NCBI GenBank assembly: GCA_030699125.1
Contig: JAUYKM010000009.1
Coordinates: 204,958-268,957 of the forward strand
DNA length: 64,000 nt
DNA from: Candidatus Daviesbacteria bacterium
GTDB taxonomy: Bacteria; Patescibacteriota; Microgenomatia; Daviesbacterales; UBA10151
Direction: 5' to 3'
Under the pieces are notes generated by a model, which saw nothing but the letters and a program-made list of their open reading frames with translations, was not told the DNA's origin and did not search any database. Position 1 is the first letter of the stretch. The number at the start of each line of letters is the position of its first letter. Positions 2,721 through 49,173 of the stretch are shown one piece after another. The position numbers and the translations under genes were made by a program.

Positions 2721-3427
2721 TCCTTAAAACTTTCTTTAAAAACTAACAATCTTTGTAATTGGCGCCAACTGTCACGCATAAACTTGACTGTTGATTTTTT
2801 CTCAGGGCGTCTTTGAAACAATATGGGGATTTCAACTATCTTTAAGTTCGCAAAAAAAGCTCGGGCTATGATTTCTGTATCCCAGAACCAACCATTGTCT
2901 TCTGTTTTTTTGACAATGGGAAGGATTTTTTTTCTATTAAAAAACTTATATCCGGCCTCAGTGTCCTTAAAAGGCAATAATAATAGTCTTCTCACGAGAA
3001 TGGGATATATTACACTGCCAAGGTACCGGTGAGGTCCAGTAATTTGGAATTTATATGACCTGGAGCCAATTGCAACATCAGCTCCTAAATCAATAGCTCT
3101 AATAAATGCTGGTAGATAATTTTCTGATACCTCAAGATCAATATCAACAAATCCAACTATATCCCCTTTAGCCTTGAGTATTCCCTCTTTAACCGTGCCG
3201 CCGCGGCCTATATTTTCAGTGTGGAATATCGAAAGGATGTTTTTGCTATGATGATGATTTTGTACATTACTTATTATTTTGCTACTGTTATCTTCACTTG
3301 CATCGTCAATAAATATTAACTCATATTCATATTTTGTGATATCCAAAATATTGATAATTCTTTTAGTACTTTCCTTAATTGAAAGTTCGTCATTGAAGCA
3401 TGCAAGAATTAAGCTAATCTTTTTCAT
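2717..3427 (-). CDS. GT2 glycosyltransferase, polyprenyl-phosphate sugar synthase type (GtrB/CsbB/ArnC/DPM1-like)
   Basis: 236 aa with ILACFNDE, FIDDASEDNS, DIDLE and a GRGGTVKEG-like motif. The short soluble GT2 architecture is typical of C55-P-sugar synthases. Confidence 0.7.
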   Translation of the reverse strand: MKKISLILACFNDELSIKESTKRIINILDITKYEYELIFIDDASEDNSSKIISNVQNHHHSKNILSIFHTENIGRGGTVKEGILKAKGDIVGFVDIDLEVSENYLPAFIRAIDLGADVAIGSRSYKFQITGPHRYLGSVIYPILVRRLLLLPFKDTEAGYKFFNRKKILPIVKKTEDNGWFWDTEIIARAFFANLKIVEIPILFQRRPEKKSTVKFMRDSWRQLQRLLVFKESFKE

Positions 3428-5637: not shown

Positions 5638-6659
5638 TATAAATCCTTATTGAGCTTACCCACTTTCATCAAATTTTGAAGATGGGTTAAACGAATAAAT
5701 TTACCATCATCGAAATCCTTTTTGGTAAAATTTTGATTAAGCTTTTTAATCAAATGATGAATTGATTTTTCCAGTGGCCATTTTTGAATTAATTTTGGTA
5801 AGATTTTTTTTATTTTAGAAAAGTCTACTCGATAACTTCTGCTATCTTTACCGTGTTCTCCGGTGTAGATAATTTTACAACTAGGCAAATATTTTTTAAC
5901 GTATTTTACTATATCCTTAATCCGGTAATTACTTTCATCGAATCCCACATTGAAAATCTCTCCATTAATTGCTTTAGAATCCAGAGTTATAAACTTAGAA
6001 ATAATTTCGGATAAATCCTGTATGTCAACAAGTGGTCTCCAAGGACTACCATCGCTTAGGATTCTAATCTCCTCAAATGCAATCGCGGAAGTGACAAGAT
6101 TATTAACAACTAAATCATTCCTAAATCTGGGAGAAAAGCCATAAACAGTTGCATTTCTCAGTAAACAAACACAAAAATTATCATCCCTTAATTTTTTCAG
6201 CTCTGTTTCTACTAAAACCTTTGATTTAGCATAGGCGGTTAAGGGATTAATTGGGGAGTTTTCATTGACCAGGTTCTCTTTAGCGATACCGTAAACCGAG
6301 CAAGAGGAAGAGAAAATAAATCTTTTTACACCCATTTTCTTTGCTTTTTTAGCAAGGGTAATAGTAGCTTTATAGTTTATATCTAAGGTAAGTTTTTCAT
6401 TTAAGGCACCCATAGGATCATTTGATAAGGCTGCCAGATGAATAATACAATCAATACCATTCAATTTCTTTATCTTATCCCGAATATCTGTTCTTTTGGA
6501 ATAATACTTATTTTTATATCTACCAATGGTAATATCCTTAAAATAATCAGTATCCCATCCAATAACTTCAAAGCCCTTTCTTAATAATTTGTTACATAAA
6601 ATAGTACCAATATAACCATTTGCACCTGTTACCAGAATTTTTTTTACCATATTTTCCAA
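5628..6659 (-). CDS. NAD-dependent epimerase/dehydratase (extended SDR), nucleotide-sugar modifying
   Basis: 343 aa. N-terminal VTGANGYIGTIL is a Rossmann motif, and YAKSK is the catalytic YxxxK. Confidence 0.75.
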   Translation of the reverse strand: MENMVKKILVTGANGYIGTILCNKLLRKGFEVIGWDTDYFKDITIGRYKNKYYSKRTDIRDKIKKLNGIDCIIHLAALSNDPMGALNEKLTLDINYKATITLAKKAKKMGVKRFIFSSSCSVYGIAKENLVNENSPINPLTAYAKSKVLVETELKKLRDDNFCVCLLRNATVYGFSPRFRNDLVVNNLVTSAIAFEEIRILSDGSPWRPLVDIQDLSEIISKFITLDSKAINGEIFNVGFDESNYRIKDIVKYVKKYLPSCKIIYTGEHGKDSRSYRVDFSKIKKILPKLIQKWPLEKSIHHLIKKLNQNFTKKDFDDGKFIRLTHLQNLMKVGKLNKDLYWI

Positions 6660-8324: not shown

Positions 8325-11045
8325 TTGCTGGATATTGGGAATTATAATATACTTTTTGAAATGTTTATATCTATACCTAAGAGAGATCTATTGCTTTTAC
8401 TCGTTATACCCCTTACCTTAGTTCTAATCTGGTTCAGAAATGGATTAATTATAGGAGGTGGAGAGGAGAGTTTACCGTTTTATAATCTTAAACATACCTT
8501 TGAAATTTCTACTTCAATCTGGGTCGAATACGCCACAGGACTTCCTATAATTGGCTGGCTTCCAAAAGCACCACTTATTTACACCGCATCATTGTTAGCA
8601 AGTATAGGTATCCCTCCTTTTATTCTACAAATGATGACATTTTATGTTTTGATGGTAGTAGGCCTTTTTAGTTTGTATTATCTTATACTGTGCTTCTTAC
8701 AAGATCGGGAAGATAAATTTACCATCGCTTTAATTACAGCTATATATTACTTATTGAATCCATTTACTTTTAGTCAAGTTTGGGGACGTGGTATATCTGC
8801 ACAATACTTTTCCTTTACTCTCTTACCGCTAACTCTTTTGATCTATATGAAGGCGCTTGAAAATAGAAAATATTGGTTTGGGATATTAATTGCTTTAATA
8901 TCTGCCATTTTTGCTGCTGCTTATCAATTTTTAACGTTTATAATAGTTCAATGGGCTGTATTATTCGCATATTCCCTGTATATACTTATCTCATCTAGGG
9001 ACAAACTAAAGCAGCTCGTGTTTATTGTCCCCTTCATGTTACTAAGTTTTACTCTCTGGGTTATTATTAATTCTTGGTGGTTAATTCCCCTTGGTTATTC
9101 AGCTACAAACGTATACTCATCAGGGATTTCCGGGGAAGCAGAAAATCTCGGGACTTTGATAGGTGTAAGCAGAAACTATACCCCGGATATTATTATTCGT
9201 CTTCTGCAAAGAACCTATTTTTACGATGCTTCTGCCTTTAGTCCAATTTATCTATCAATACCGTTTCAGCTTATTAGCTGGATCCCGGTAATATTTATAA
9301 TCCTTGCCCTTTACAAAATTTTAAAAGCAAAACTGAGGCAGTTTCGTTTTCTTGTCATTTTGCTTTTCTTAGGATTAATTATTTCATTGGGAGCAAACCC
9401 GCCTTTCGGAAGTCTATTTATAGAAGTATTTAAAAAATCTTCCATACTCCAAGCTTTCAGAAATCCTTTTGAAAAATTTGGTTTGGTTTATGCCTTAGGT
9501 TACAGTGCTATTTTTGCCTATGGGCTTACTTCATTTTTTAATAACAAGTTTAAGAGCTTAGGTATACTCTTTATATTGGGGTTAACTTGTGGCATTTTTG
9601 CCTGGCCAATGTGGACCGGCAGGGTAGTAGCTGCACCGGATAAAAAAATTGGTGTACTGGTCCCCTCCGCCTATCAGGAGTTGAATAATTGGTTAAATGA
9701 TAAAGGAGATTTTAGATTAATTATGACTCCTCTTTGGGGTGGAGATGGAGCTTTTTATCTTTGGGATGGCCATAGATATCAGGGTTCAGACCCAATGATA
9801 TTTATTGTAAATATGGGCACTATTTCAAACAGCATTAAATTGCCCTACTACTATGATTTTATAAGAGGGATCCATAAGTATAAGGAAAGAATTAATGTAG
9901 CACCTTCGCTCAGTCTACTTAGAGCAAAGTATTTGGTAGATAGAAAGGATGCCACTTTAATCAGTGAAGCAGAGAAACAACATCAAAAATATTTAACAAA
10001 GGTGATATATCCCCCAACTGAATCTATATATAATGTATGTAATGATCTTTACGATAATGCCGGGGCCGATAAAATAGCTTGGATTGTTTGTCAGGTTCCC
10101 CCAGCATATAGTAATTGGCAGGAGATCAAATATCTTCATATCAAAGTTAGAGCGAACGAGAGCGCCCTTTTAGATGTTGCAGTGCAGGACAAAAAGGGAA
10201 TTAGGATTCGCTGGGACGGCAGGATGGATAAAGAATATTCAACCATAGGGGACAGCTGGACTACGCTTATCTTACCAATTAATTACCCGACAGAATACAA
10301 TTACGCAATTGATTTTTCTGCAATTAATTCTTTGGAGATTAAGGCTCACCCTATCGGGAACCCTCTTGATACAGTTTGGGAGGTGAATTTAGGAGAGGTT
10401 AGGTTAGATACAGGTAGAGAAGAGAAAACTGATGCCTTTGACCTAGTGAAAAGTTTTGGGGCACTAGATGTATATGAACCAAATTATTTTGTAGATCCTG
10501 GTGAAGTTAATATGTTATCAAATATAAACTTTGTAGAAGATTTTATCGAATTATTTAATTTAGTCAATGAAGATAGAGAAGTTTTGAATCAAGAAGGCTT
10601 TTTAGTTTATAGTCAGAATCCAGAAAAGAATTCTGATCAACTAGTCATAAAACCAACTCTTAAAATTAAAAATTATAGCAAGATCTCAAATACTCGTTAT
10701 TGGATTCAGACTAAAGGGGAAGGAGAGGGATTAGTTTTATTAAGTAAGACTTTTGACCCGCAATGGAAAATCTTAAAGGGTGTTACTCCTGAAAAACTCT
10801 CAAGCAATTTTTTCAATAATCTCAATCTTTTAAAAGATGTATCACTGAGTGAAGATAATCATTATATAGTTAACGGTTATGCAAATTTATGGAAAATCGA
10901 TGCTGGAGAATCTGATTATGCTATAGTATACAAACCGAGGATCATAGCTGAGATAGGTTTTACGATTTCTAAATTTTCCGCCATTTTTATCTTAGGGATC
11001 GTGGCTATGTTGACGTTTAAAAATTATGTTCAAAGAAAATTCTAA
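8325..11045 (+). CDS. Giant polytopic membrane protein, YfhO/AftD-like GT-C glycosyltransferase architecture (paralog 1 of 4)
   Basis: 906 aa. About 11-13 N-terminal TM helices with an acidic GGG[DE] motif just after TM1, then a ~450-aa extracytoplasmic domain, then one C-terminal TM. It is a paralog of the 21633, 25458 and 29392 genes. The start may instead be 8361 (MFISIPK). Confidence 0.55.
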   Translation: MLDIGNYNILFEMFISIPKRDLLLLLVIPLTLVLIWFRNGLIIGGGEESLPFYNLKHTFEISTSIWVEYATGLPIIGWLPKAPLIYTASLLASIGIPPFILQMMTFYVLMVVGLFSLYYLILCFLQDREDKFTIALITAIYYLLNPFTFSQVWGRGISAQYFSFTLLPLTLLIYMKALENRKYWFGILIALISAIFAAAYQFLTFIIVQWAVLFAYSLYILISSRDKLKQLVFIVPFMLLSFTLWVIINSWWLIPLGYSATNVYSSGISGEAENLGTLIGVSRNYTPDIIIRLLQRTYFYDASAFSPIYLSIPFQLISWIPVIFIILALYKILKAKLRQFRFLVILLFLGLIISLGANPPFGSLFIEVFKKSSILQAFRNPFEKFGLVYALGYSAIFAYGLTSFFNNKFKSLGILFILGLTCGIFAWPMWTGRVVAAPDKKIGVLVPSAYQELNNWLNDKGDFRLIMTPLWGGDGAFYLWDGHRYQGSDPMIFIVNMGTISNSIKLPYYYDFIRGIHKYKERINVAPSLSLLRAKYLVDRKDATLISEAEKQHQKYLTKVIYPPTESIYNVCNDLYDNAGADKIAWIVCQVPPAYSNWQEIKYLHIKVRANESALLDVAVQDKKGIRIRWDGRMDKEYSTIGDSWTTLILPINYPTEYNYAIDFSAINSLEIKAHPIGNPLDTVWEVNLGEVRLDTGREEKTDAFDLVKSFGALDVYEPNYFVDPGEVNMLSNINFVEDFIELFNLVNEDREVLNQEGFLVYSQNPEKNSDQLVIKPTLKIKNYSKISNTRYWIQTKGEGEGLVLLSKTFDPQWKILKGVTPEKLSSNFFNNLNLLKDVSLSEDNHYIVNGYANLWKIDAGESDYAIVYKPRIIAEIGFTISKFSAIFILGIVAMLTFKNYVQRKF

Positions 11046-20045: not shown

Positions 20046-21646
20046 AAAAAGCTTTGGTATCAGTAGTTATAGTAACAAAGGATAGAAAAAATGATTTAAT
20101 TGAGTGTACTAATTCCTATATTAAATCAACATATAAGCCAATAGAAATTATAGTTATAGATAATGCCTCAAAGCCTTCTTTATTAACATGGCTACCAAAA
20201 AAATATCCAAAAGTTAAACTTATTACTTCTGATAAAAATCTAGGTGCAGCATCTGGGAGAAACTTAGGATTTGATCATTCGAAAGGTGAGTATATTCTTT
20301 TTACAGATGATGACGCTGTTTGTGATAAAGATATGATTACTCAATTAGTGAAAGTTTTCGAAGATAAAAATGAAGCAGGAATTGTTCAACCGTTAGTCTA
20401 CGATAAGCATCGAAAGAATATGCTGCAAGGTGCAGGTCATGATATTGATCTTACAACAGGAAGGATTAGAGCATCAGGTGTGAAAGAAGTTGATAGGGGA
20501 CAGTATGATGGTTTAAGGGAAGTGCCGATGTGTGGTTGTGTGTGGATGGTAAAAAGGGAGGTCTTTGAAAAGATTGGCAGCTATGATCCGGATTATTTTA
20601 TTCCATATGAAGATTGCGATTTTTCTGTAAGGGCAAGGAATGCAGGATTTAAGCTCTATTGTATATCTTTGGGTAAGACTTGGCATCGAGGCCCTAAGAA
20701 TACATTTGTTCATCCCTGGATAGAATGGCTTGGTATTACTTCCCCCGAAAGAGCATACAGAATTGCCAGAAATAAAATGATATTCATGAGAAAAAATTCA
20801 CCATTTCCTAACAATCTTATTTTTTTCTTTTTGTTTCTTCCAATATATACTTTAGCTCATAGTTTAATTATTCTATTGACGGGAAAGTTCGATATCTTTT
20901 TAAAGTATTGGTTAGGAGTTATATCCGGAGTTTGGTATGCTATAACTTTCCCTGTCAGAGATATTGTTAGATCTAACTATAGGAAGATTGATAAATTATC
21001 ACGTCCTATAAAAATGTTCCTAATTGCAACAACAGATCCTGTTAATTGGGTAATTGATACAAAAAGTGAATCTATTCTGGATTTGGGTTGTGGACCTGGT
21101 AAATTAATGGAATTTATAAAATTCAAAATGAAGGTAAGAAAAGCAGTCGGTGTTGATCTCTTTGCTCCTTATATTGAAGAGGGAAAATTAAGAAAAACTC
21201 ATGATCAATTTATATTGGAAGACGTAAGAAAAGTGAAATTTAATAATAAATCTTTTGATATTGTACTTGCCTCTCATGTACTTGAGCATTTAGGTAAAAA
21301 TGATGCTTGGAAACTTTTGAGTAATATGGAAAAGTGGGCAAAAAGACAAGTTATTGTGGCAACGCCAATTGGTGAACATTACCATCCTCCTGAGGATGGT
21401 AATCCACTACAGCTTCATCATAGCGCTTTCCAGCCTGAAGATTTTGAAAAAAGAGGTTATAAAATACTAAAATATGGCTGGAAATGGTTACTTGGAGATA
21501 AGGGATTAGTTCATAAAATAGATAATGATTTGATCAGAAAAATCATCTATACATTTAATATTTTGATTACCCCCATACTTTATTTATTTCAAGAAAGCTG
21601 TGACTATATTTTTGTAGCTATTAAAAGGGTAGATGAAAAGTTATAA
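20042..21646 (+). CDS. Bifunctional GT2 glycosyltransferase / SAM methyltransferase fusion
   Basis: 534 aa. The N-terminal half (VSVVIVTKDRKND ... FTDDDAVCDKD) is GT2. The C-terminal half (ILDLGCGPGKLME ... VLASHVLEHL) is a methyltransferase. Both halves are paralogous to the two upstream stand-alone genes. Confidence 0.75.
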   Translation: MKKALVSVVIVTKDRKNDLIECTNSYIKSTYKPIEIIVIDNASKPSLLTWLPKKYPKVKLITSDKNLGAASGRNLGFDHSKGEYILFTDDDAVCDKDMITQLVKVFEDKNEAGIVQPLVYDKHRKNMLQGAGHDIDLTTGRIRASGVKEVDRGQYDGLREVPMCGCVWMVKREVFEKIGSYDPDYFIPYEDCDFSVRARNAGFKLYCISLGKTWHRGPKNTFVHPWIEWLGITSPERAYRIARNKMIFMRKNSPFPNNLIFFFLFLPIYTLAHSLIILLTGKFDIFLKYWLGVISGVWYAITFPVRDIVRSNYRKIDKLSRPIKMFLIATTDPVNWVIDTKSESILDLGCGPGKLMEFIKFKMKVRKAVGVDLFAPYIEEGKLRKTHDQFILEDVRKVKFNNKSFDIVLASHVLEHLGKNDAWKLLSNMEKWAKRQVIVATPIGEHYHPPEDGNPLQLHHSAFQPEDFEKRGYKILKYGWKWLLGDKGLVHKIDNDLIRKIIYTFNILITPILYLFQESCDYIFVAIKRVDEKL

Positions 21647-42759: not shown

Positions 42760-43784
42760 AAAATATCAGAGTGGGAATGGACATATCTCAAGTAGCTCAC
42801 AGGGGAGGGGTGGCAATTTATACTCAGAATCTCTCTCAAGAACTTTCCAAAAATAAAGGTTTGGAGATGGCGTATTTTTATTCATCTTTAAGAAAATCTT
42901 ATCATGGTCATTTAAAAAATATTAAGAAATACAGGCTTCCGCCTACTTTTTTTGAAATGCTTTTTAACAGATGGAGAAACGTATCTATTGAGCGATTTTT
43001 AGGACCCTTAGATATTTTTCACTCATCAGATTGGACTCAGCCGCCATCTAAGGCCAAAAAAGTGACAACATATCATGATTTGGTGCCTATAAAATATCCC
43101 CAGTGGTCACATCCTAAAATTGTATCTGTTCACAAAAGAAGACTCTATCTAATAGAGCAAGAGATAGATCATGTAATTTGTGTCTCAGAATCTGCCAAGA
43201 ATGATTTGATGGAGGTTTCATCTATCCCTGAGAAAAAAATTACGGTAATTTATGAGGCGCCAACCTCCGAATTTAAAATCCAGCCAAAAGATAAAATTGA
43301 AGCGTTTAAAAAGAAATATAATTTGCCCGAAAAATTTGTCTTGGCAATTGGGGGAGTGGGAGAAAGAAGAAATTTGGCGAGAATTAAAGAAGCTTGCAAA
43401 GATTATCATCTGGTAATTTCCGGATATGATATTCCCCATCTGGAGGATTTAGGGGAGTTGGAGCTACTTTACAACTGTGCTCAGGCATTAGTGTATTGTT
43501 CGCTATATGAGGGTTTTGGGTTGCCAATTTTAGATGGATTTGCCTGTGGTTTGCCGGTTGTAACCTCAAACGTCTCTGCCATGCCGGAGATTGGTGGAGA
43601 GGCTGCCACTTATGCAGACCCATATAATATAGAAGATATGACAATAAAATTAAGATCGGTTTTGGAAGATGAGGATATGAGGAATATTATGATAAAAAAA
43701 GGATTGGAGAGAGTTAAACAATTTTCCTGGAAAAAATGTGCAAAAGAAACAGCAGAAGTTTATAAAAAATTAATGAAGTCATGA
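42756..43784 (+). CDS. GT4 (GT-B fold) glycosyltransferase
   Basis: 342 aa with the LYEGFGLPILDGFACGLPVVTSN motif. Confidence 0.75.
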   Translation: MKNIRVGMDISQVAHRGGVAIYTQNLSQELSKNKGLEMAYFYSSLRKSYHGHLKNIKKYRLPPTFFEMLFNRWRNVSIERFLGPLDIFHSSDWTQPPSKAKKVTTYHDLVPIKYPQWSHPKIVSVHKRRLYLIEQEIDHVICVSESAKNDLMEVSSIPEKKITVIYEAPTSEFKIQPKDKIEAFKKKYNLPEKFVLAIGGVGERRNLARIKEACKDYHLVISGYDIPHLEDLGELELLYNCAQALVYCSLYEGFGLPILDGFACGLPVVTSNVSAMPEIGGEAATYADPYNIEDMTIKLRSVLEDEDMRNIMIKKGLERVKQFSWKKCAKETAEVYKKLMKS

Positions 43785-44908
43785 AGATAGCCATAGACGG
43801 TTATGAAGCTAATGTTTTACAAAGGTTGGGCTCATCACAGGTGGCTTTTGAATTAATCAAAAACCTCGAAAAAATTGATAGAAAGAATGATTACACTATT
43901 CTTTTACCGTCTGCTCCGATGGAGGATTTTCCCAAAGAACGTCAGGGATGGAAATATAAAATTCTAAAACCCAAGATGCTTTGGACCAGGATAGCTTTAC
44001 CCTTGTTTCTATATACATCCAGACAAAAGGTTGATTTGATCTTTTCCCCAACACACTATATTCCCAGATTTTCTTCAGTAAAAAGAGTAGTAACAATATT
44101 TGATTTATCTTTTTTACATTTTCCCGAAAGTTTTCTTAAAAAAGATCTTTGGCAGCTTAAAAATTGGACCAAGTTTTCCGCCCAGGAGGCTGATCATATC
44201 ATCACCATCTCCAATTTTTCCAAAAAGGATATTATCAAACAATATGGAGTAAGCTCTGAAAAAATAACAATAGCATATCCCGGTTTTAATAAAGATATTT
44301 TTAAACCAATAAAAGATAAAGAAAAAAAAGAAAAGATAATTAAAGAATATGGATTAGGAGATTCCTTCCTTATATATATAGGGACAATACAGCCTAGGAA
44401 AAATCTGGTTAGACTTATGGAGGCAATTGCTAGAATTGAGAATTTACAGCTAGTGATTGTGGGAAAAACCAGAGATAAGGGTAAGTCCGGCTGGATGTTT
44501 GATAAAATTTTACAAACTCCTAAAAATTTAGGTATTGAGGAAAGGGTAAAATTTACAGGATTTGTTAAAAGTGAAGACTTGCCCTATCTTATTTCAGGAG
44601 CGAAGGCTTTTATTTTACCTTCTCTTTGGGAGGGATTTGGCATTCCGGTACTAGAAGCTATGGCTTGTGGTGTGCCAACTCTTATATCTAATAACTCATC
44701 GCTTCCCGAAATAACAGGTAAAGGAGGAATAAAATTTGATCCATATTCAGTTGATCAGATTGAGCAGGCAATCAGAACTATTATCAGCGATAAAAAGTTG
44801 TGGCAAAAATATTCTAAAGAGGCTTTGATCCAGTCAAAAAAATATTCCTGGAAAAAAATGGCCAGAGAAGTTAAGAGGGTATTTGAGATAGTTGGAGAAA
44901 TAGCCTAA
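43781..44908 (+). CDS. GT4 (GT-B fold) glycosyltransferase
   Basis: 375 aa with the LWEGFGIPVLEAMACGVPTLISN motif. Confidence 0.75.
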   Translation: MKIAIDGYEANVLQRLGSSQVAFELIKNLEKIDRKNDYTILLPSAPMEDFPKERQGWKYKILKPKMLWTRIALPLFLYTSRQKVDLIFSPTHYIPRFSSVKRVVTIFDLSFLHFPESFLKKDLWQLKNWTKFSAQEADHIITISNFSKKDIIKQYGVSSEKITIAYPGFNKDIFKPIKDKEKKEKIIKEYGLGDSFLIYIGTIQPRKNLVRLMEAIARIENLQLVIVGKTRDKGKSGWMFDKILQTPKNLGIEERVKFTGFVKSEDLPYLISGAKAFILPSLWEGFGIPVLEAMACGVPTLISNNSSLPEITGKGGIKFDPYSVDQIEQAIRTIISDKKLWQKYSKEALIQSKKYSWKKMAREVKRVFEIVGEIA

Positions 44909-44931: not shown

Positions 44932-45534
44932 ATGGCTATATTTCATAATCGGATGGGTCAAGAACTATCTGGGAGGCAAGCATCATCCAAGATTGCCAAC
45001 CGTCTCTATAATTATCTGGCTGATTTTGCCCTTTTTTGTATACAAGTGCTTTCGTATATTCCCTCTCACCATATTCGGAGATTTCTATACAGATTGGCTG
45101 GTGCAAAGATTGGTCAAGGCAGCACGATACATATGGGCTGTAGTTTTTTTTCTTTAAAAAAAGTGAGTATTGGAGAAGATAGCCTGATAGGACGAGGTAC
45201 TTTTTTGGATGGCAGAGCCCCCCTAAAGATTGGTGACCATGTAGATATTGCCTCAGAGGTGATGATTTATAATAGTGAGCATAATATTAATTCCGATGAC
45301 TTTCATGCCACACTTGCCCCAGTTGAAATAGAAGACTATGTATTTATTGGTCCCAGAGCCATCATTTTACCTAATGTAAGGATTGACAAAGGAGCTGTAG
45401 TGGCAGCAGGAGCTGTTGTGACAAAAGATGTTAATGAGTTCGTCATAGTAGGTGGAGTACCGGCAGAGGTGATTGGTGAGAGGAAACTGAAAGATCCAAA
45501 GTACAGATTAGGAAGGGCACGATTGTTTCAGTAG
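44932..45534 (+). CDS. Hexapeptide-repeat acetyltransferase (WcaF/CapG-like polysaccharide O-acetyltransferase)
   Basis: 200 aa with the tandem hexapeptides IGEDSLIGRGTFLDGRAPLKIGDHVDIASEVMIY and IGPRAIILPNVRIDKGAVVAAGAVV. Confidence 0.7.
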   Translation: MAIFHNRMGQELSGRQASSKIANRLYNYLADFALFCIQVLSYIPSHHIRRFLYRLAGAKIGQGSTIHMGCSFFSLKKVSIGEDSLIGRGTFLDGRAPLKIGDHVDIASEVMIYNSEHNINSDDFHATLAPVEIEDYVFIGPRAIILPNVRIDKGAVVAAGAVVTKDVNEFVIVGGVPAEVIGERKLKDPKYRLGRARLFQ

Positions 45535-45539
45535 CCAAT

Positions 45540-45606
45540 TGTCATCCTGAGGGCGAAGCCCGAAGGATCTCTCAACCCATTCGGGTCTGAGTCCCTCAGG
45601 GTCGAA
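45540..45606. repeat. GC-rich structured intergenic element (TGTCAT + imperfect long hairpin)
   Basis: TGTCAT-CCTGAGGGCGAAGCCCGAAGG-ATC ... CCCATTCGGGTCTGAGTCCCTCAGGG. Pairing is CCTGAGGG/CCCTCAGG and CCCGAA/TTCGGG. It lies directly after the stop at 45534 and is unlike the AT-rich flanks. Confidence 0.5.
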
Positions 45607-45613
45607 GACTTGT

Positions 45614-46225
45614 TTGAGACTTGCATTCGCAAGAGATTCTTCGCTAATCGCTCAGAATGACAAAAAAGATATGAAATATTCTTTTATCATTTTTTCTCTA
45701 CTACTTCTAATTTATATGCTCTGGCCCGGGCCCACGAAAATTTCCGATTCCCCCCCTCTTCCAAATTCTGATAAATCCACTCTGGAAGGTGATACTATCC
45801 AAATACCAAACGTCTCAGCATATTTTTCCAACAATTTTAGGGATTTTGCTACCAGCTTTTATCGAAATCATTACCAGAACTCATCTCATTTTCCTTTCCC
45901 ACCACTCACGCTGAATCATCCTCCGGAATATTCCTGGATTGCCATAAAAAGGCACACGGATACCACCTATTTGGAAGAATTTGCTTACCCTCTTAGGGAT
46001 TCCTTGTATGTGAACGGTTTGGAGCCATTTTATGAAGACGGTTCACCTAAATTTTGGGGTGCCACTATGTTTGAGATTGGTCCTGCAAATTTCTTTACTA
46101 AGGTAACATTAAGATTTTATCCGTCAAATATTCTAGTCAGAATTATCGTTTGGTTAGGTGTAGTGGTGTCTATCTGGTTACTTTTTAAATTAGGCAAGCA
46201 AATTGTTTTGCAAAAATATGAGTAG
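45614..46225 (+). CDS. Hypothetical membrane-anchored protein
   Basis: 203-aa ORF. The probable start is at 45671 (MKYSFIIFSLLLLIYMLWPGP), which gives one N-terminal TM and a C-terminal TM. There is no recognisable family. Confidence 0.4.
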   Translation: MRLAFARDSSLIAQNDKKDMKYSFIIFSLLLLIYMLWPGPTKISDSPPLPNSDKSTLEGDTIQIPNVSAYFSNNFRDFATSFYRNHYQNSSHFPFPPLTLNHPPEYSWIAIKRHTDTTYLEEFAYPLRDSLYVNGLEPFYEDGSPKFWGATMFEIGPANFFTKVTLRFYPSNILVRIIVWLGVVVSIWLLFKLGKQIVLQKYE

Positions 46226-47654
46226 ACTCTTATCCATTTATAGTAAATCATTATTTATTCTAGCTGCATTTTTATTTGCTTTTATTCCTCTTTATCCCAA
46301 GTTCCCTTTTTTAAATATTGCAGGAACTTTTGTAGCAGTAAGATTGGAAGATATTCTGATTGCTTTTTTGGCCGTATCTTGGGCAATTTATATTGTTATC
46401 TCTAATAAATTGAGAGATCTCCTCAAAGATAGACTAGCTCAAGTTTTGTTGCTTTTTTTCTTTATTGGGGCTGTCTCTTTAATTTCAGGCATATTTTTAA
46501 CTCATAGCGTCTCAGGGAGTATTGGTTTACTACATCTTTTAAGAAGGGTTGAATATATGATTCTTTTGCCAATTGTGGCCACCCTTATTCAAACTAAGAA
46601 ACAATTTATAATGATTCTAATAACATTGGGGGCTGTTTTGCTAGCAGTGAACTTATATGCTTTAGGCCAGCAATTCTTAGATTGGCCGGTTATCTCTACC
46701 ACCAATTCTGAATTCTCCAAGGGATTGATTTTAAGACTGACTCCTGGAGCGAGGGTCAACTCCACTTTTGCAGGACATTATGATTTGGCGGCATTTTTGG
46801 CAATGGCATTATGTCTACTTAGTGCACTTTTCTTTGCTGTTAATAAAAGGATAAAAATAGTGGTAATTTTATTGTTTGGGAGCTCCCTTTTAGTACTGGT
46901 TATGAGTGCTGCCAGAGTTTCATTTATGGCGGCATTCTTTGGAATAATTGCTGCTCTAATCTTTTCTAAGAAAAAGAAGTATTTAATTTTCATATTCATT
47001 GCATCTTTATTGATCTTACTTTATCCCTCTCAATTAAGGGATAGATTTATTTCAACTATCACTATAAATATTTTAAATTTGGGCCAAAGATATGAAGGAC
47101 AAACGCAAGACCAGCACATCAGAAGCAAACTTAATATACCCACATTGGCAATTAAAACTTCCTCCCGGTCAGCAGAATCTTCAACTTTTGCTTCGCCCTC
47201 GGGTTCCACAGCCACAGATATTACTCCGGGTGAACCGCTAGATACCACACAGCTCGGGGTTTATAGATCTTTTCAAATTAGGCTAAATATTGAATGGCCC
47301 AGAGCCGTAAGAGCGTTTATTAAAAATCCGCTTTTGGGAACTGGCTACTCCTCAATTGATATAGCAACGGATAATGATATTTTAAGATCGTTAGGGGAGG
47401 TGGGATTGTTAGGAACTTTTGCCTTAGGACTAGTATTTATAGAGGTTGGTAAAAGGATCCACTGCTGTTTTAGAGATGAATCCAAATTAATTAAATATTT
47501 TTCTGCAGGCGTGTTAGCTATCATGATTGCCTTTTTGATAAATAGTTTATTCATAGATGTATTGGAAGCTTCAAAAGTAGCCACTCTTTTCTGGATGATA
47601 TTAGGTTTAAACTTGGCAGTATTGTCATTCCCGCGTATGCGGGAATCCAATTAA
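46203..47654 (+). CDS. Wzy_C-type O-antigen ligase/polymerase-like polytopic membrane protein
   Basis: 483 aa with ~12 TM helices. RAVRAFIKNPLLGTGYSS resembles the conserved O-antigen-ligase loop motif. It carries an S/T-rich, GC-rich insert at ~47150-47260. The last 7 codons are contributed by a GC hairpin. Confidence 0.55.
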   Translation: MFCKNMSRLLSIYSKSLFILAAFLFAFIPLYPKFPFLNIAGTFVAVRLEDILIAFLAVSWAIYIVISNKLRDLLKDRLAQVLLLFFFIGAVSLISGIFLTHSVSGSIGLLHLLRRVEYMILLPIVATLIQTKKQFIMILITLGAVLLAVNLYALGQQFLDWPVISTTNSEFSKGLILRLTPGARVNSTFAGHYDLAAFLAMALCLLSALFFAVNKRIKIVVILLFGSSLLVLVMSAARVSFMAAFFGIIAALIFSKKKKYLIFIFIASLLILLYPSQLRDRFISTITINILNLGQRYEGQTQDQHIRSKLNIPTLAIKTSSRSAESSTFASPSGSTATDITPGEPLDTTQLGVYRSFQIRLNIEWPRAVRAFIKNPLLGTGYSSIDIATDNDILRSLGEVGLLGTFALGLVFIEVGKRIHCCFRDESKLIKYFSAGVLAIMIAFLINSLFIDVLEASKVATLFWMILGLNLAVLSFPRMRESN

Positions 47655-47695
47655 TAATATTTGTTAAATGGATCCCTGCCTTCGCAGGGATGACA
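47623..47695. repeat. Inverted pair of GC-rich hairpin units (TGTCAT-TCCCGC-GTAT-GCGGGA-ATCCA ... TGGAT-CCCTGC-CTTC-GCAGGG-ATGACA)
   Basis: Two units lie in opposite orientation, separated by a 19-nt AT spacer. The outer TGTCAT/ATGACA and ATCCA/TGGAT arms are complementary, and each unit carries its own 6-bp GC stem. The pair overlaps the stop of the 46203 gene and the annotated 5' end of the 47668 gene. Confidence 0.55.
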
Positions 47696-49173
47696 CAATA
47701 ATTGAGATGAATATTTTTAAGATTTTAAGAAATGAATATTTTTGGCTAGGTTTAATCTTACTGGCGGCTTTTTTGGTGAGACTATATAGAATCGATGCAC
47801 CAATTGCAGATTGGCATTCCTGGAGACAGGCTGATACGGCAGCGGTCAGTAGAAATTTTATAAAGGAAGGATTTAATCCCCTCATTCCAAAATATGATGA
47901 TATGTCAGGAGTGGCGGAAAAACCCCTGGTTAATAGCCAGGGATTTAGATTTGTGGAATTTCCCGTCTATAATATCTTTGTTTATCCAATGTATCTTCTC
48001 TTTGGAGTAAATGATGCTCTCAGCAGATTAGTTTCAGTATTTTTTTCTTTAGGCAGTGTAATATTTGTTTATCTTATTTCTAAAAAATATTTAGGTATTT
48101 TAACAGCGCTTTTAACAGCTTTTATCTATGCTCTCCTGCCTTTTAATGTGTTTTTCCAAAGAACTACTTTGCCTGAACCAACCTTTTTATTTTTTGCTCT
48201 GGGGATGCTTTATTTTATGGATCGCTGGATTTGGGATAATAAAATAAATTCAGCCTCCTGGGGATTTATTTTTACAACAATTGCCTTTTTGATAAAACCC
48301 TGGGCCATCTTTTTTTATTTGCCGCTTTTGTACTCAGTTTTTACAAAGAGAGACAAACAATTCTTTTTTAAAAAATTTATCCCTTTAACAATTTTTGCAA
48401 TTACCCCATTTGTTCTATGGAGAATGTGGATTTTGCAGCAGCCTCAGGGAATACCTGCTTCTAATTGGTTGCTTAATGGGGATGGGATAAGATTTAGACC
48501 GGCTTTTTTCTGGTGGATCGTATCAGAAAGAATGGGCCGGGAGATTTTAGGGGCTTCAGGTTTTGCACTTTTTATAATAGGAATCTTGGTTAGGCCCCTG
48601 AAAAGTTACTTTTTGCATGTTTGGCTATTATCCATGGTTTTATACTTTGTGGTTTTTGCCACAGGTAATGTCAGACACAATTATTACCAAATAATATTTG
48701 TACCGATTGCCGCAATTTTTATCTCTTATGGTTTTTCCTATTTATTTAATAGGTCGAAAGATCTATTGCCAAGAGTTTGGACGATCCCTTTAGCACTTTT
48801 ATTACTTTCATCAACGTTTTATTTTACCTATAAGATTGATAAAGAATTCTATAAAATAAATAATCCGGCAATTGTGGAGGCAGGAGAAATAGCTGATAAA
48901 ATCTTGCCCAAAGATGCAATTGTCTTGGCTCCTTATAATGGAGATACTGCCTTTTTATACCAGATAAATCGACGAGGTTTTCCAGTTGCTATACTACCTG
49001 CTTCGGAGATGGTATCAGATTATGGTGTGACTCATTATGTTTCTACCACATATGATGAAAAAACTAATTGGGTAAAAAGGCATTTCCAGATTATTTTAGA
49101 GACTCCGCAATTCATGATTGCTGATCTAACTAATCTGACTTCTCCATTAGATACGCTAGACCCTGAACCGTAA
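47668..49173 (+). CDS. GT-C glycosyltransferase, PMT/ArnT-like polytopic membrane protein
   Basis: 501-aa ORF. The likely true start is MNIFKIL at 47707. The first-loop motif is WHSWRQADTAAVSRNF, with ~11 TM helices. Confidence 0.55.
   Translation: MDPCLRRDDTIIEMNIFKILRNEYFWLGLILLAAFLVRLYRIDAPIADWHSWRQADTAAVSRNFIKEGFNPLIPKYDDMSGVAEKPLVNSQGFRFVEFPVYNIFVYPMYLLFGVNDALSRLVSVFFSLGSVIFVYLISKKYLGILTALLTAFIYALLPFNVFFQRTTLPEPTFLFFALGMLYFMDRWIWDNKINSASWGFIFTTIAFLIKPWAIFFYLPLLYSVFTKRDKQFFFKKFIPLTIFAITPFVLWRMWILQQPQGIPASNWLLNGDGIRFRPAFFWWIVSERMGREILGASGFALFIIGILVRPLKSYFLHVWLLSMVLYFVVFATGNVRHNYYQIIFVPIAAIFISYGFSYLFNRSKDLLPRVWTIPLALLLLSSTFYFTYKIDKEFYKINNPAIVEAGEIADKILPKDAIVLAPYNGDTAFLYQINRRGFPVAILPASEMVSDYGVTHYVSTTYDEKTNWVKRHFQIILETPQFMIADLTNLTSPLDTLDPEP

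Follow-up and report, generated by a model that had tools for sequence, protein, structure and literature searches.

An inverted pair of GC-rich hairpins at a gene junction in a Daviesbacteria genome is probably a gene-less derivative of the Ssn nuclease cassette

Two neighbouring genes of a glycosyltransferase gene run in a Candidatus Daviesbacteria genome meet at a pair of short, GC-rich hairpins that face each other across the gene boundary, the first forming the end of one predicted protein and the second lying within the annotated beginning of the next. What is this structure, and how did it come to lie there? The locus is part of a 64-kb stretch of DNA, here called the window, for which the original prediction, made from the letters alone, had described two inverted GC hairpins at 47623-47695, 19 AT-rich nucleotides (nt) apart. 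Our reading of the sequence and a repeat search gave the same picture, with a perfect 8-bp stem in each hairpin. We consider it likely that this doublet is a non-autonomous derivative, resembling a miniature inverted-repeat transposable element (MITE), of the cassettes that carry the GIY-YIG nuclease Ssn, and that it was inserted at the gene junction in this genome of the candidate phyla radiation (CPR). Its parts are as follows.

47623-47650, + strand: unit 1 (type A), TGTCATTCCCGCGTATGCGGGAATCCAA, with the core TGTCAT-TCCCGC-GTAT-GCGGGA-ATCCA at 47623-47649
47627-34/47639-46, + strand: stem of unit 1 with the loop GTAT, a forward hairpin resembling the Neisseria Transformation Sequence (NTS) and its related motifs (SRMs), from the repeat search
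about 47650-47668, no strand assigned: spacer, 19 nt, AT-rich, ATTAATAATATTTGTTAAA
47668-47695, - strand: unit 2 (type B), which reads TGTCATCCCTGCGAAGGCAGGGATCCAT on the - strand, with the core TGGAT-CCCTGC-CTTC-GCAGGG-ATGACA at 47669-47695 on the + strand
47672-79/47684-91, - strand: stem of unit 2 with a 4-nt loop, a forward hairpin of the same architecture as unit 1, from the repeat search
47624-47697, no strand assigned: the whole doublet, 74 nt, a block present here and missing in the closest relative, contig L002

Because the window has a GC content of about 33-39%, the doublet stands out as a sharp GC island. Pattern searches found each unit once in the window against 0.00 expected from 100 shuffles, so that chance is excluded and the doublet is real. 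A looser scan for such units returned nine candidates, compared with 9.1 in shuffled sequences; it thus performs at chance level, and only the two perfect units are real. The 35-nt arms at 47623-57 and 47661-95 are 77% complementary according to the repeat search, and the spacer itself lies within the extended inverted repeat (ATCCAATTAATAA / TTGTTAAATGGAT). Relative to unit 1, the stem of unit 2 is changed at two positions per arm, but these changes compensate each other and pairing is preserved. As RNA, the + strand folds into one long composite stem (-37.2 kcal/mol, z = -5.1), and so does the - strand (-34.1 kcal/mol, z = -4.9). Calculated with DNA parameters, the single-stranded DNA (ssDNA) instead forms a cloverleaf (-20.8 kcal/mol, z = -6.0) made up of the two local hairpins, a hairpin in the spacer and a closing stem of TGTCAT with ATGACA. 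Both folds that had been proposed from the letters, two local hairpins or one long composite stem, are thus possible, the former in ssDNA and the latter in RNA. Rfam gave no match anywhere in the 64-kb window at gathering thresholds.

The identity of the hairpins, which was absent from the original prediction, becomes apparent from work on Neisseria. There, the NTS is a 28-nt sequence, CGTCATTCCCGCGMAVGCGGGAATCYRG, containing the dRS3 motif ATTCCC-N8-GGGAAT; it is the target of SsnA, a 94-aa GIY-YIG nuclease that binds the NTS solely as ssDNA, and of this the forward strand alone, and that cuts a few nucleotides 5' of the motif (Chenal et al., Nat Commun 2025, PMC11893778). Cleavage depends critically on the GTC of the NTS and binding on the C that follows the palindrome, and the related SRMs flank ssn homologues across bacteria (PMC11893778). 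Unit 1 contains an exact dRS3 at 47627-47646, for which 0.01 occurrences would be expected by chance, and agrees with the NTS at 24 of 28 positions, with mismatches at both terminal bases and at two bases of the loop. The GTC in front of the stem and the C behind it are also retained. Unit 2 has no dRS3 match. Both units read TGTC-AT...AT-CC around their perfect 8-bp stems and so possess the two hallmarks of an SRM, a 5' flank that gives the hairpin its orientation and a C following the palindrome.

As had been anticipated, the hairpin is not a lone copy but part of a dispersed multi-copy family. This is evident from pattern scans of three collections, IMG/VR, the GTDB species genomes and metagenomes, all counts from which are lower bounds. 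A general hairpin pattern hit more than 120 IMG/VR stretches among the matches listed, and a longer pattern more than 110 stretches among the matches listed for the GTDB species genomes, where twelve loci came from Daviesbacteria and the matches listed spanned Flavobacteriaceae, many CPR groups, Nitrospirae, Planctomycetes, Legionellaceae, Rickettsia and Gammaproteobacteria. With the unit-2 variant, more than 120 metagenome stretches were found among the matches listed, ranging from 34 to 68% GC. Single Daviesbacteria genomes can harbour several copies, as for instance the contigs L141, L179 and L222, which stem from one assembly.

Neighbouring units less than 70 nt apart show a pronounced orientation bias, 167 being convergent compared with 19, 10 and 14 in the other three orientations. 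The doublets of Daviesbacteria are 59-79 nt long, intergenic and composed of two different hairpins, like the window copy. Across the metagenome loci, 57 doublets include the ATCCCTGC hairpin; its partner is ATTCCCGC in 45 of them and a second ATCCCTGC in two. Since homotypic doublets of other stems exist, such as ATTCCTGC pairs, mainly in Flavobacteriaceae, this heterotypy is a trait of the A/B subtype and not of the whole family. Judged by its two stems, the window doublet belongs to this specific, widely distributed A/B type, whose pairing is also seen in Daviesbacteria genomes and in metagenome contigs of 34-68% GC. The hairpin is moreover under selection. In an alignment for which partner units had been picked by position and the GTCAT motif, with no hairpin criterion (A3), 90% of the stem cells were paired versus 82% in shuffles and 31 cells were compensatory versus 4.2, values that were reached by 0 of 500 shuffles; sliding the register brought pairing down to 17-50%. 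One stem pair occurs in all four combinations, C-G, U-A, A-U and G-C. G-U pairs are rare in the stem, which fits a hairpin forming on both DNA strands better than an RNA helix.

A second spacing class of convergent pairs encloses the nuclease itself. Among the 18 pairs spaced at 150-500 nt, 12 enclose a gene for an Ssn-like GIY-YIG protein of about 95 aa, and all 12 fall between 305 and 430 nt. A family hidden Markov model (HMM) detected 16 Ssn-like genes in 2.7 Mb flanking these hairpins, compared with none in 1.03 Mb flanking a different class of hairpin that also occurs in the window (45538-45661, see below). A protein search started from one of the Ssn-like genes yielded two proteins, P0133 and P0154, which are named GIY-YIG nucleases of Candidatus Daviesbacteria by NCBI and match Pfam PF01541. 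P0154 is flanked by convergent GTCAT hairpins (L357, 2867-2890 on the + and 3248-3270 on the - strand) and P0133, on contig L356, by hairpins with nested inserts in their loops. Searched against NCBIfam and PDB sequences, the Daviesbacteria Ssn-like proteins had only sub-threshold matches, to a group I intron endonuclease model and to the UPF0213 structure 1zg2. Neither match separates Ssn from other GIY-YIG families; the putative assignment draws on PF01541 and on family-level similarity. Because it has the same orientation of its ends and no gene, the doublet stands to the Ssn cassettes as a MITE does to its parent.

Several observations accompany this comparison. Contig L356 (Daviesbacteria, GCA_030648645.1) contains four small GIY-YIG genes within 20 kb, at 6118-6366, 8408-8695, 10001-10279 and 20207-20279, which sit among the housekeeping genes rplS, rnhB, dnaE, gatCAB and obg. 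One of the four is preceded by hairpins of another class, GTCATTGCGAGC...GCAATCTC, suggesting that one small genome may contain several pairs of a nuclease and its cognate hairpin. Nested second small hairpins are found in the loops of both hairpins flanking P0133 (L356, 9900-10000 and 10290-10345) and in that of the right unit of L003 (about 1690-1725), a same-site copy of the element described below; such loops may serve as insertion points in their own right. Two IMG/VR contigs have the same hairpin-gene-hairpin layout with other cargo (L031, 11720-12039; L037, 358-682): convergent NTS-like hairpins enclose small genes of a type other than GIY-YIG, and this cargo adjoins a large gene of 495 aa. 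A GIY-YIG gene of Roizmanbacteria (L230) proved to be of a different type and unflanked by hairpins, and was not used.

How the doublet relates to its site is seen in a comparison with close relatives, for which the following features are needed.

46218-47654, + strand: Wzy_C / O-antigen-ligase-like gene, starting at ATG 46218 or TTG 46203, with its last 9 codons and stop from the element
47698-47709, + strand: remnant of the original Wzy end with the ATGA stop/start overlap, TAATTGAGATGA versus AAATTGAGATGA in L002 (alignment A1)
47707-49173, + strand: PMT_2-family glycosyltransferase gene (Pfam PMT_2), true start ATG 47707, annotated start 47668 inside unit 2

The Pfam match of the first gene to Wzy_C lies just under the gathering cut-off (30.7 versus 31.7 bits, E 3e-7), and both genes are part of a co-directional glycosyltransferase gene run. 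Judging by its homologues, the locus belongs to Candidatus Daviesbacteria (Patescibacteria/CPR). Contig L002 encodes the closest Wzy orthologue (P0001, 97% identical) and aligns with the window through the whole locus, with a single 74-nt gap that corresponds exactly to 47624-47697. The suspicion that the composite is a MITE-like inverted-repeat insertion is supported by this relative, whose Wzy-like protein is 97% identical and which lacks precisely the element. The Wzy stop and the PMT_2 start of L002 overlap (…AAATTGAGATGAATATT, ATGA), and the same string is kept in the window just 3' of the insert. The site is likewise empty in L477, which among the relatives without a tail is the nearest to two other filled lineages; there, too, PMT_2 start and Wzy stop overlap as ATGA. 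In close relatives, the element is either there or missing as one exactly delimited block, and it behaves as an insertion.

Same-site copies were found in three further contigs, L003, L004 and L005, and three separate lineages have the site filled three codons ahead of the Wzy stop: that of the window, that of P0044 with P0056, and that of P0045. In L003 and L004, whose stems are partly decayed, the left unit is of type A and the right one of type B; L005 breaks off before the right unit. An exact search with the 478-aa Wzy product had its sole match in a 2-kb Logan contig, which ends inside the element. The doublet thus combines several features of a MITE: convergent ends shared with the Ssn cassettes, 74 nt devoid of an open reading frame (ORF), and empty sites in L002 and L477. 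As a side observation, two short-read contigs from other samples, L001 (ending at 2018) and L005 (ending at 2014), stop inside unit 1 or the spacer, as is expected of assembly breaks at a multi-copy repeat.

For the two flanking proteins, the consequences can be read off the alignment with L002. The third base of a Leu codon, the nine codons SFPRMRESN and a TAA stop at 47652-54 come from the element; the last three Wzy codons (KLR) are exchanged for SFPRMRESN, and the original codons are displaced downstream. It had been proposed that unit 1 codes for the C-terminus of the Wzy-like protein, which is correct, although the proposed extent of seven codons has to be revised to nine. The window protein ends in ...LAVLSFPRMRESN, compared with ...LAALKLR in P0001, and most of the 120 listed orthologues end in ...LGLNLAVLKFK or similar (...LKFK), without a tail; a comparable tail is present in P0044, P0045 and P0056 only. 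The comparison of orthologous C-termini that the original prediction had called for thus identifies the tail as extra. On the other side, the formerly overlapping genes are now separated by the element, and a false PMT_2 start codon has been created at 47668. The resulting extension MDPCLRRDD (47668-47706) had been regarded as probably spurious and is indeed so, given that PMT_2 starts at the ATG matching 47707 in both L002 and L477. Tail and extension are by-products of the insert, and the effects on both proteins are most likely incidental.

What is known of SsnA allows a mechanism to be sketched for such an element. Each unit comprises GTCAT, an 8-bp GC stem and ATCC, and the convergent pair would represent a gene-less version of a hairpin-ssn-inverted hairpin cassette. 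In the single-stranded state, the + strand would expose unit 1 and the - strand unit 2, in each case as a forward hairpin; a cognate Ssn encoded elsewhere would bind each of these and nick it a few bases 5' of GTCAT, by analogy with the Neisseria enzyme (PMC11893778). The predicted nicks would then fall at both outer edges of the doublet. Such nicking could either drive spread and excision or merely restrict incoming ssDNA, as in Neisseria. We regard the element as probably mobile; for the NTS-ssn-NTS modules themselves, Chenal et al. have suggested that they are, or were once, mobile elements (PMC11893778). More speculatively, Ssn cassettes and gene-less doublets might together constitute a mobile family driven by GIY-YIG nucleases, much as insertion sequences are accompanied by MITEs. 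Nicks at the outer edges, seamless insertion and excision without target duplication, a preference for certain sites (the last Wzy codons, filled independently in three lineages), and the pairing of ATTCCCGC with ATCCCTGC as distinct left and right ends, as in IS200/IS605, would all belong to this picture, which we put forward only tentatively and think somewhat doubtful in its entirety.

A number of points weigh against the derivation of the doublet from an Ssn cassette by insertion. Its local density is low, as the 64-kb window holds no second copy of this hairpin class beyond the one doublet. An Ssn-like gene was not found in the 64-kb window either, whether with a regular expression, with tblastn using 5 and then 122 Ssn-like proteins, or with the family HMM on the six-frame translation, and the presence of a cognate nuclease in the source organism is assumed from other Daviesbacteria. 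The published degenerate SRM string, HGTCWYN(0-2)YYVSBRHN(0-5)WNVSBRGN(0-2)RNCYNB, is missed by unit 1 by one substitution (the last base) and by unit 2 by two. The hairpins flanking the Daviesbacteria Ssn-like gene in L357 deviate from it by one and two substitutions as well; two control sequences written to fit the NTS consensus match it with 0 substitutions, so the expression as such works. Altering the palindrome with the hairpin kept abolishes the activity of N. meningitidis SsnA (PMC11893778), and unit 2 would therefore need a different or more tolerant enzyme. Alignments with the relatives revealed no convincing target-site duplication at the junctions, where, owing to the divergence of the flanks, the element boundary can be placed only to within 1-3 nt. 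To our knowledge, nobody has demonstrated transposition by an Ssn protein. Homologous recombination, finally, could also give the pattern of presence and absence: window and L002 form a mosaic with an overall identity of 90.8%, and the 30 nt left of the element (47594-47623) show 11 differences to L002, nearly all of them synonymous, compared with no more than six to L004 and L005, which are distant filled alleles.

These last points bear on the route by which the doublet reached this site, and they fit an alternative in which the same Ssn-type doublet was spread as a filled allele by homologous recombination, or is ancient and was precisely lost several times. Such a history would account for the filling of the same site in three Wzy lineages whose nearest relatives are empty, and for the asymmetry common to all complete filled copies, in which type A precedes type B. 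It would also fit the divergence profile: the left tract differs at 11/30 positions from L002 and at 6/30 from L004 and L005, the 354 nt further upstream diverge by 5% from L002 and by 28-29% from L004 and L005, and the element itself is 16% different from L004 and L005, less than the 28-29% of the adjacent gene. The whole locus is a recombination mosaic, and in Neisseria the NTS repeats mark regions of recombination and variability (PMC11893778). However, patches this divergent are not unusual here, as about 6% of the 30-nt windows of the alignment have at least 10 mismatches, and no donor lineage has been identified. Recombination would also explain how the filled allele spread, not how it first arose, and so competes with insertion solely over the route to this site and not over the identity of the element. 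We consider this history unlikely, although the repeated filling in three lineages could reflect site preference, repeated precise excision or recombinational spread.

Two further explanations concern the nature of the doublet rather than its route. It could be an intrinsic terminator or attenuator, or a structure stabilizing the mRNA, selected at this place because it adjusts how strongly the Wzy-like and PMT_2 genes are expressed relative to each other; a bidirectional terminator/attenuator had been part of the original prediction. For each strand the calculated RNA fold is very stable (-37.2 and -34.1 kcal/mol, z about -5), the element lies exactly at a gene boundary, and any copy within an operon is transcribed, making a side effect on the RNA plausible. 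Enterobacterial hairpins of the REP/BIME type stabilize upstream mRNA. Yet neither hairpin is followed by a T-run on either strand, and a terminator scan of 45300-48000 calls none at 47620-47700, so that the proposed terminator finds no support. The element also lies inside a co-directional run whose two genes overlap in relatives, and since the closest relative and most orthologues have the 4-nt stop/start overlap without any structure, there is no conserved need for regulation at this site. The same doublet is also found in front of divergent genes, where contigs end and in contigs of phages; its stem has almost no G-U pairs, and Rfam matches are lacking. A function in terminating or stabilizing this transcript thus seems to us quite improbable. 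Less probable still, indeed hardly credible, is that the doublet is a REPIN mobilized by a RAYT, a Y1 transposase of the IS200/IS605 type, and unconnected to Ssn. Its architecture is the same, with two short inverted palindromes, a short spacer and a possible long-hairpin fold; there are many dispersed, mostly intergenic copies, and the parallel was pointed out by Chenal et al. themselves (PMC11893778). The conserved 5' flank, however, is GTCAT and not a GTAG-type tetranucleotide as in REPs, unit 1 is an exact dRS3 that matches the NTS at 24/28 positions, and the cargo of convergent pairs is a GIY-YIG protein of about 95 aa (12/18 at 150-500 nt), with no RAYT-sized ORF among them. Ssn-like genes are moreover enriched beside these hairpins. 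The derivation from an Ssn cassette thus remains the reading that we prefer.

The window contains a second inverted hairpin pair, at 45538-45661, which is of a different class (TGTCATCCTGAGGGCGAAGCCCGAAGGATCTC ... GAGATTCTTCGCTAATCGCTCAGAATGACA) and has a structured spacer of about 60 nt. It lies between a hexapeptide transferase gene and the next gene and creates a spurious start, MRLAFARDSSLIAQND, of an ORF at 45614. The pair is present in L002 with one substitution and missing from L477, and its class is widespread in IMG/VR; in one contig (L428, 8545-8980), five copies of an 87-nt unit, each a doublet of this type followed by an A-run, are arranged head to tail as a BIME-like tandem array. 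A hammerhead-like reading of its CUGA...GAA strings was dismissed, as the core and the order of the stems do not fit and Rfam finds nothing, and so was a link of this class to Ssn, there being no Ssn-like gene in 1.03 Mb of flanks. In L002, the hexapeptide transferase gene is closely preceded by genes for bAvd and a reverse transcriptase (1346-2712), which look like a diversity-generating retroelement; at this position, the window has a GT4 glycosyltransferase gene (43781-44908).

Elements of this kind have been described since 2025; what is new here is the host group, the tight A/B doublet form and the clean filled and empty alleles. The Ssn/NTS system, known experimentally only from Neisseria and a few other bacteria, is thereby placed in Patescibacteria, and clean pairs of filled and empty sites are the type of evidence needed to test the mobility of NTS-ssn-NTS modules. 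For the locus itself, the GC island in a 33% GC genome, the odd C-terminal tail and the false 5' extension are by-products of a repeat and do not reflect the biology of the glycan genes. The peptides that arise from the repeat, SFPRxRES..., MDSRxRGND... and MDPCLRRDD..., can be used to flag similar mis-annotations elsewhere.

Among known repeats, Rickettsia palindromic elements (RPEs) and other MITEs within coding sequences, such as Correia elements, resemble the doublet in that a short palindromic element joins a reading frame without destroying the protein, and in the existence of filled and empty alleles. RPEs, however, are 100-150 bp long, usually lie in frame within genes and have no sequence similarity to the doublet, and Correia elements are associated with a TA duplication, whereas no target-site duplication was detected here. 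The REP/BIME and REPIN-RAYT systems have in common with it the pairs of inverted palindromes, a non-autonomous repeat associated with a nuclease gene that is present once and bordered by copies of that repeat, and a substrate presumed to be ssDNA; they differ in having a GTAG-type motif and an HUH Y1 enzyme where we find GTCAT and a GIY-YIG nuclease. The Neisseria intergenic mosaic elements (NIMEs), in which inverted dRS3 copies also bracket a short sequence, have the same layout, but these are specific to Neisseria and contain repeats of 50-150 bp between the dRS3 copies, compared with a spacer of 19 nt and a second arm that is not a dRS3 in the doublet. In the NTS/SRM system, for which neither a host from the Patescibacteria (CPR) is mentioned nor a tight, gene-less doublet of two different hairpins with its A/B pairing rule described (PMC11893778), we find units of about 28 nt with a ATTCCCGC/GCGGGAAT palindrome, preceded by GTCAT and followed by a C, as in the doublet; multi-copy dispersal and inverted copies flanking small single-domain GIY-YIG genes are shared with the wider family of these hairpins.

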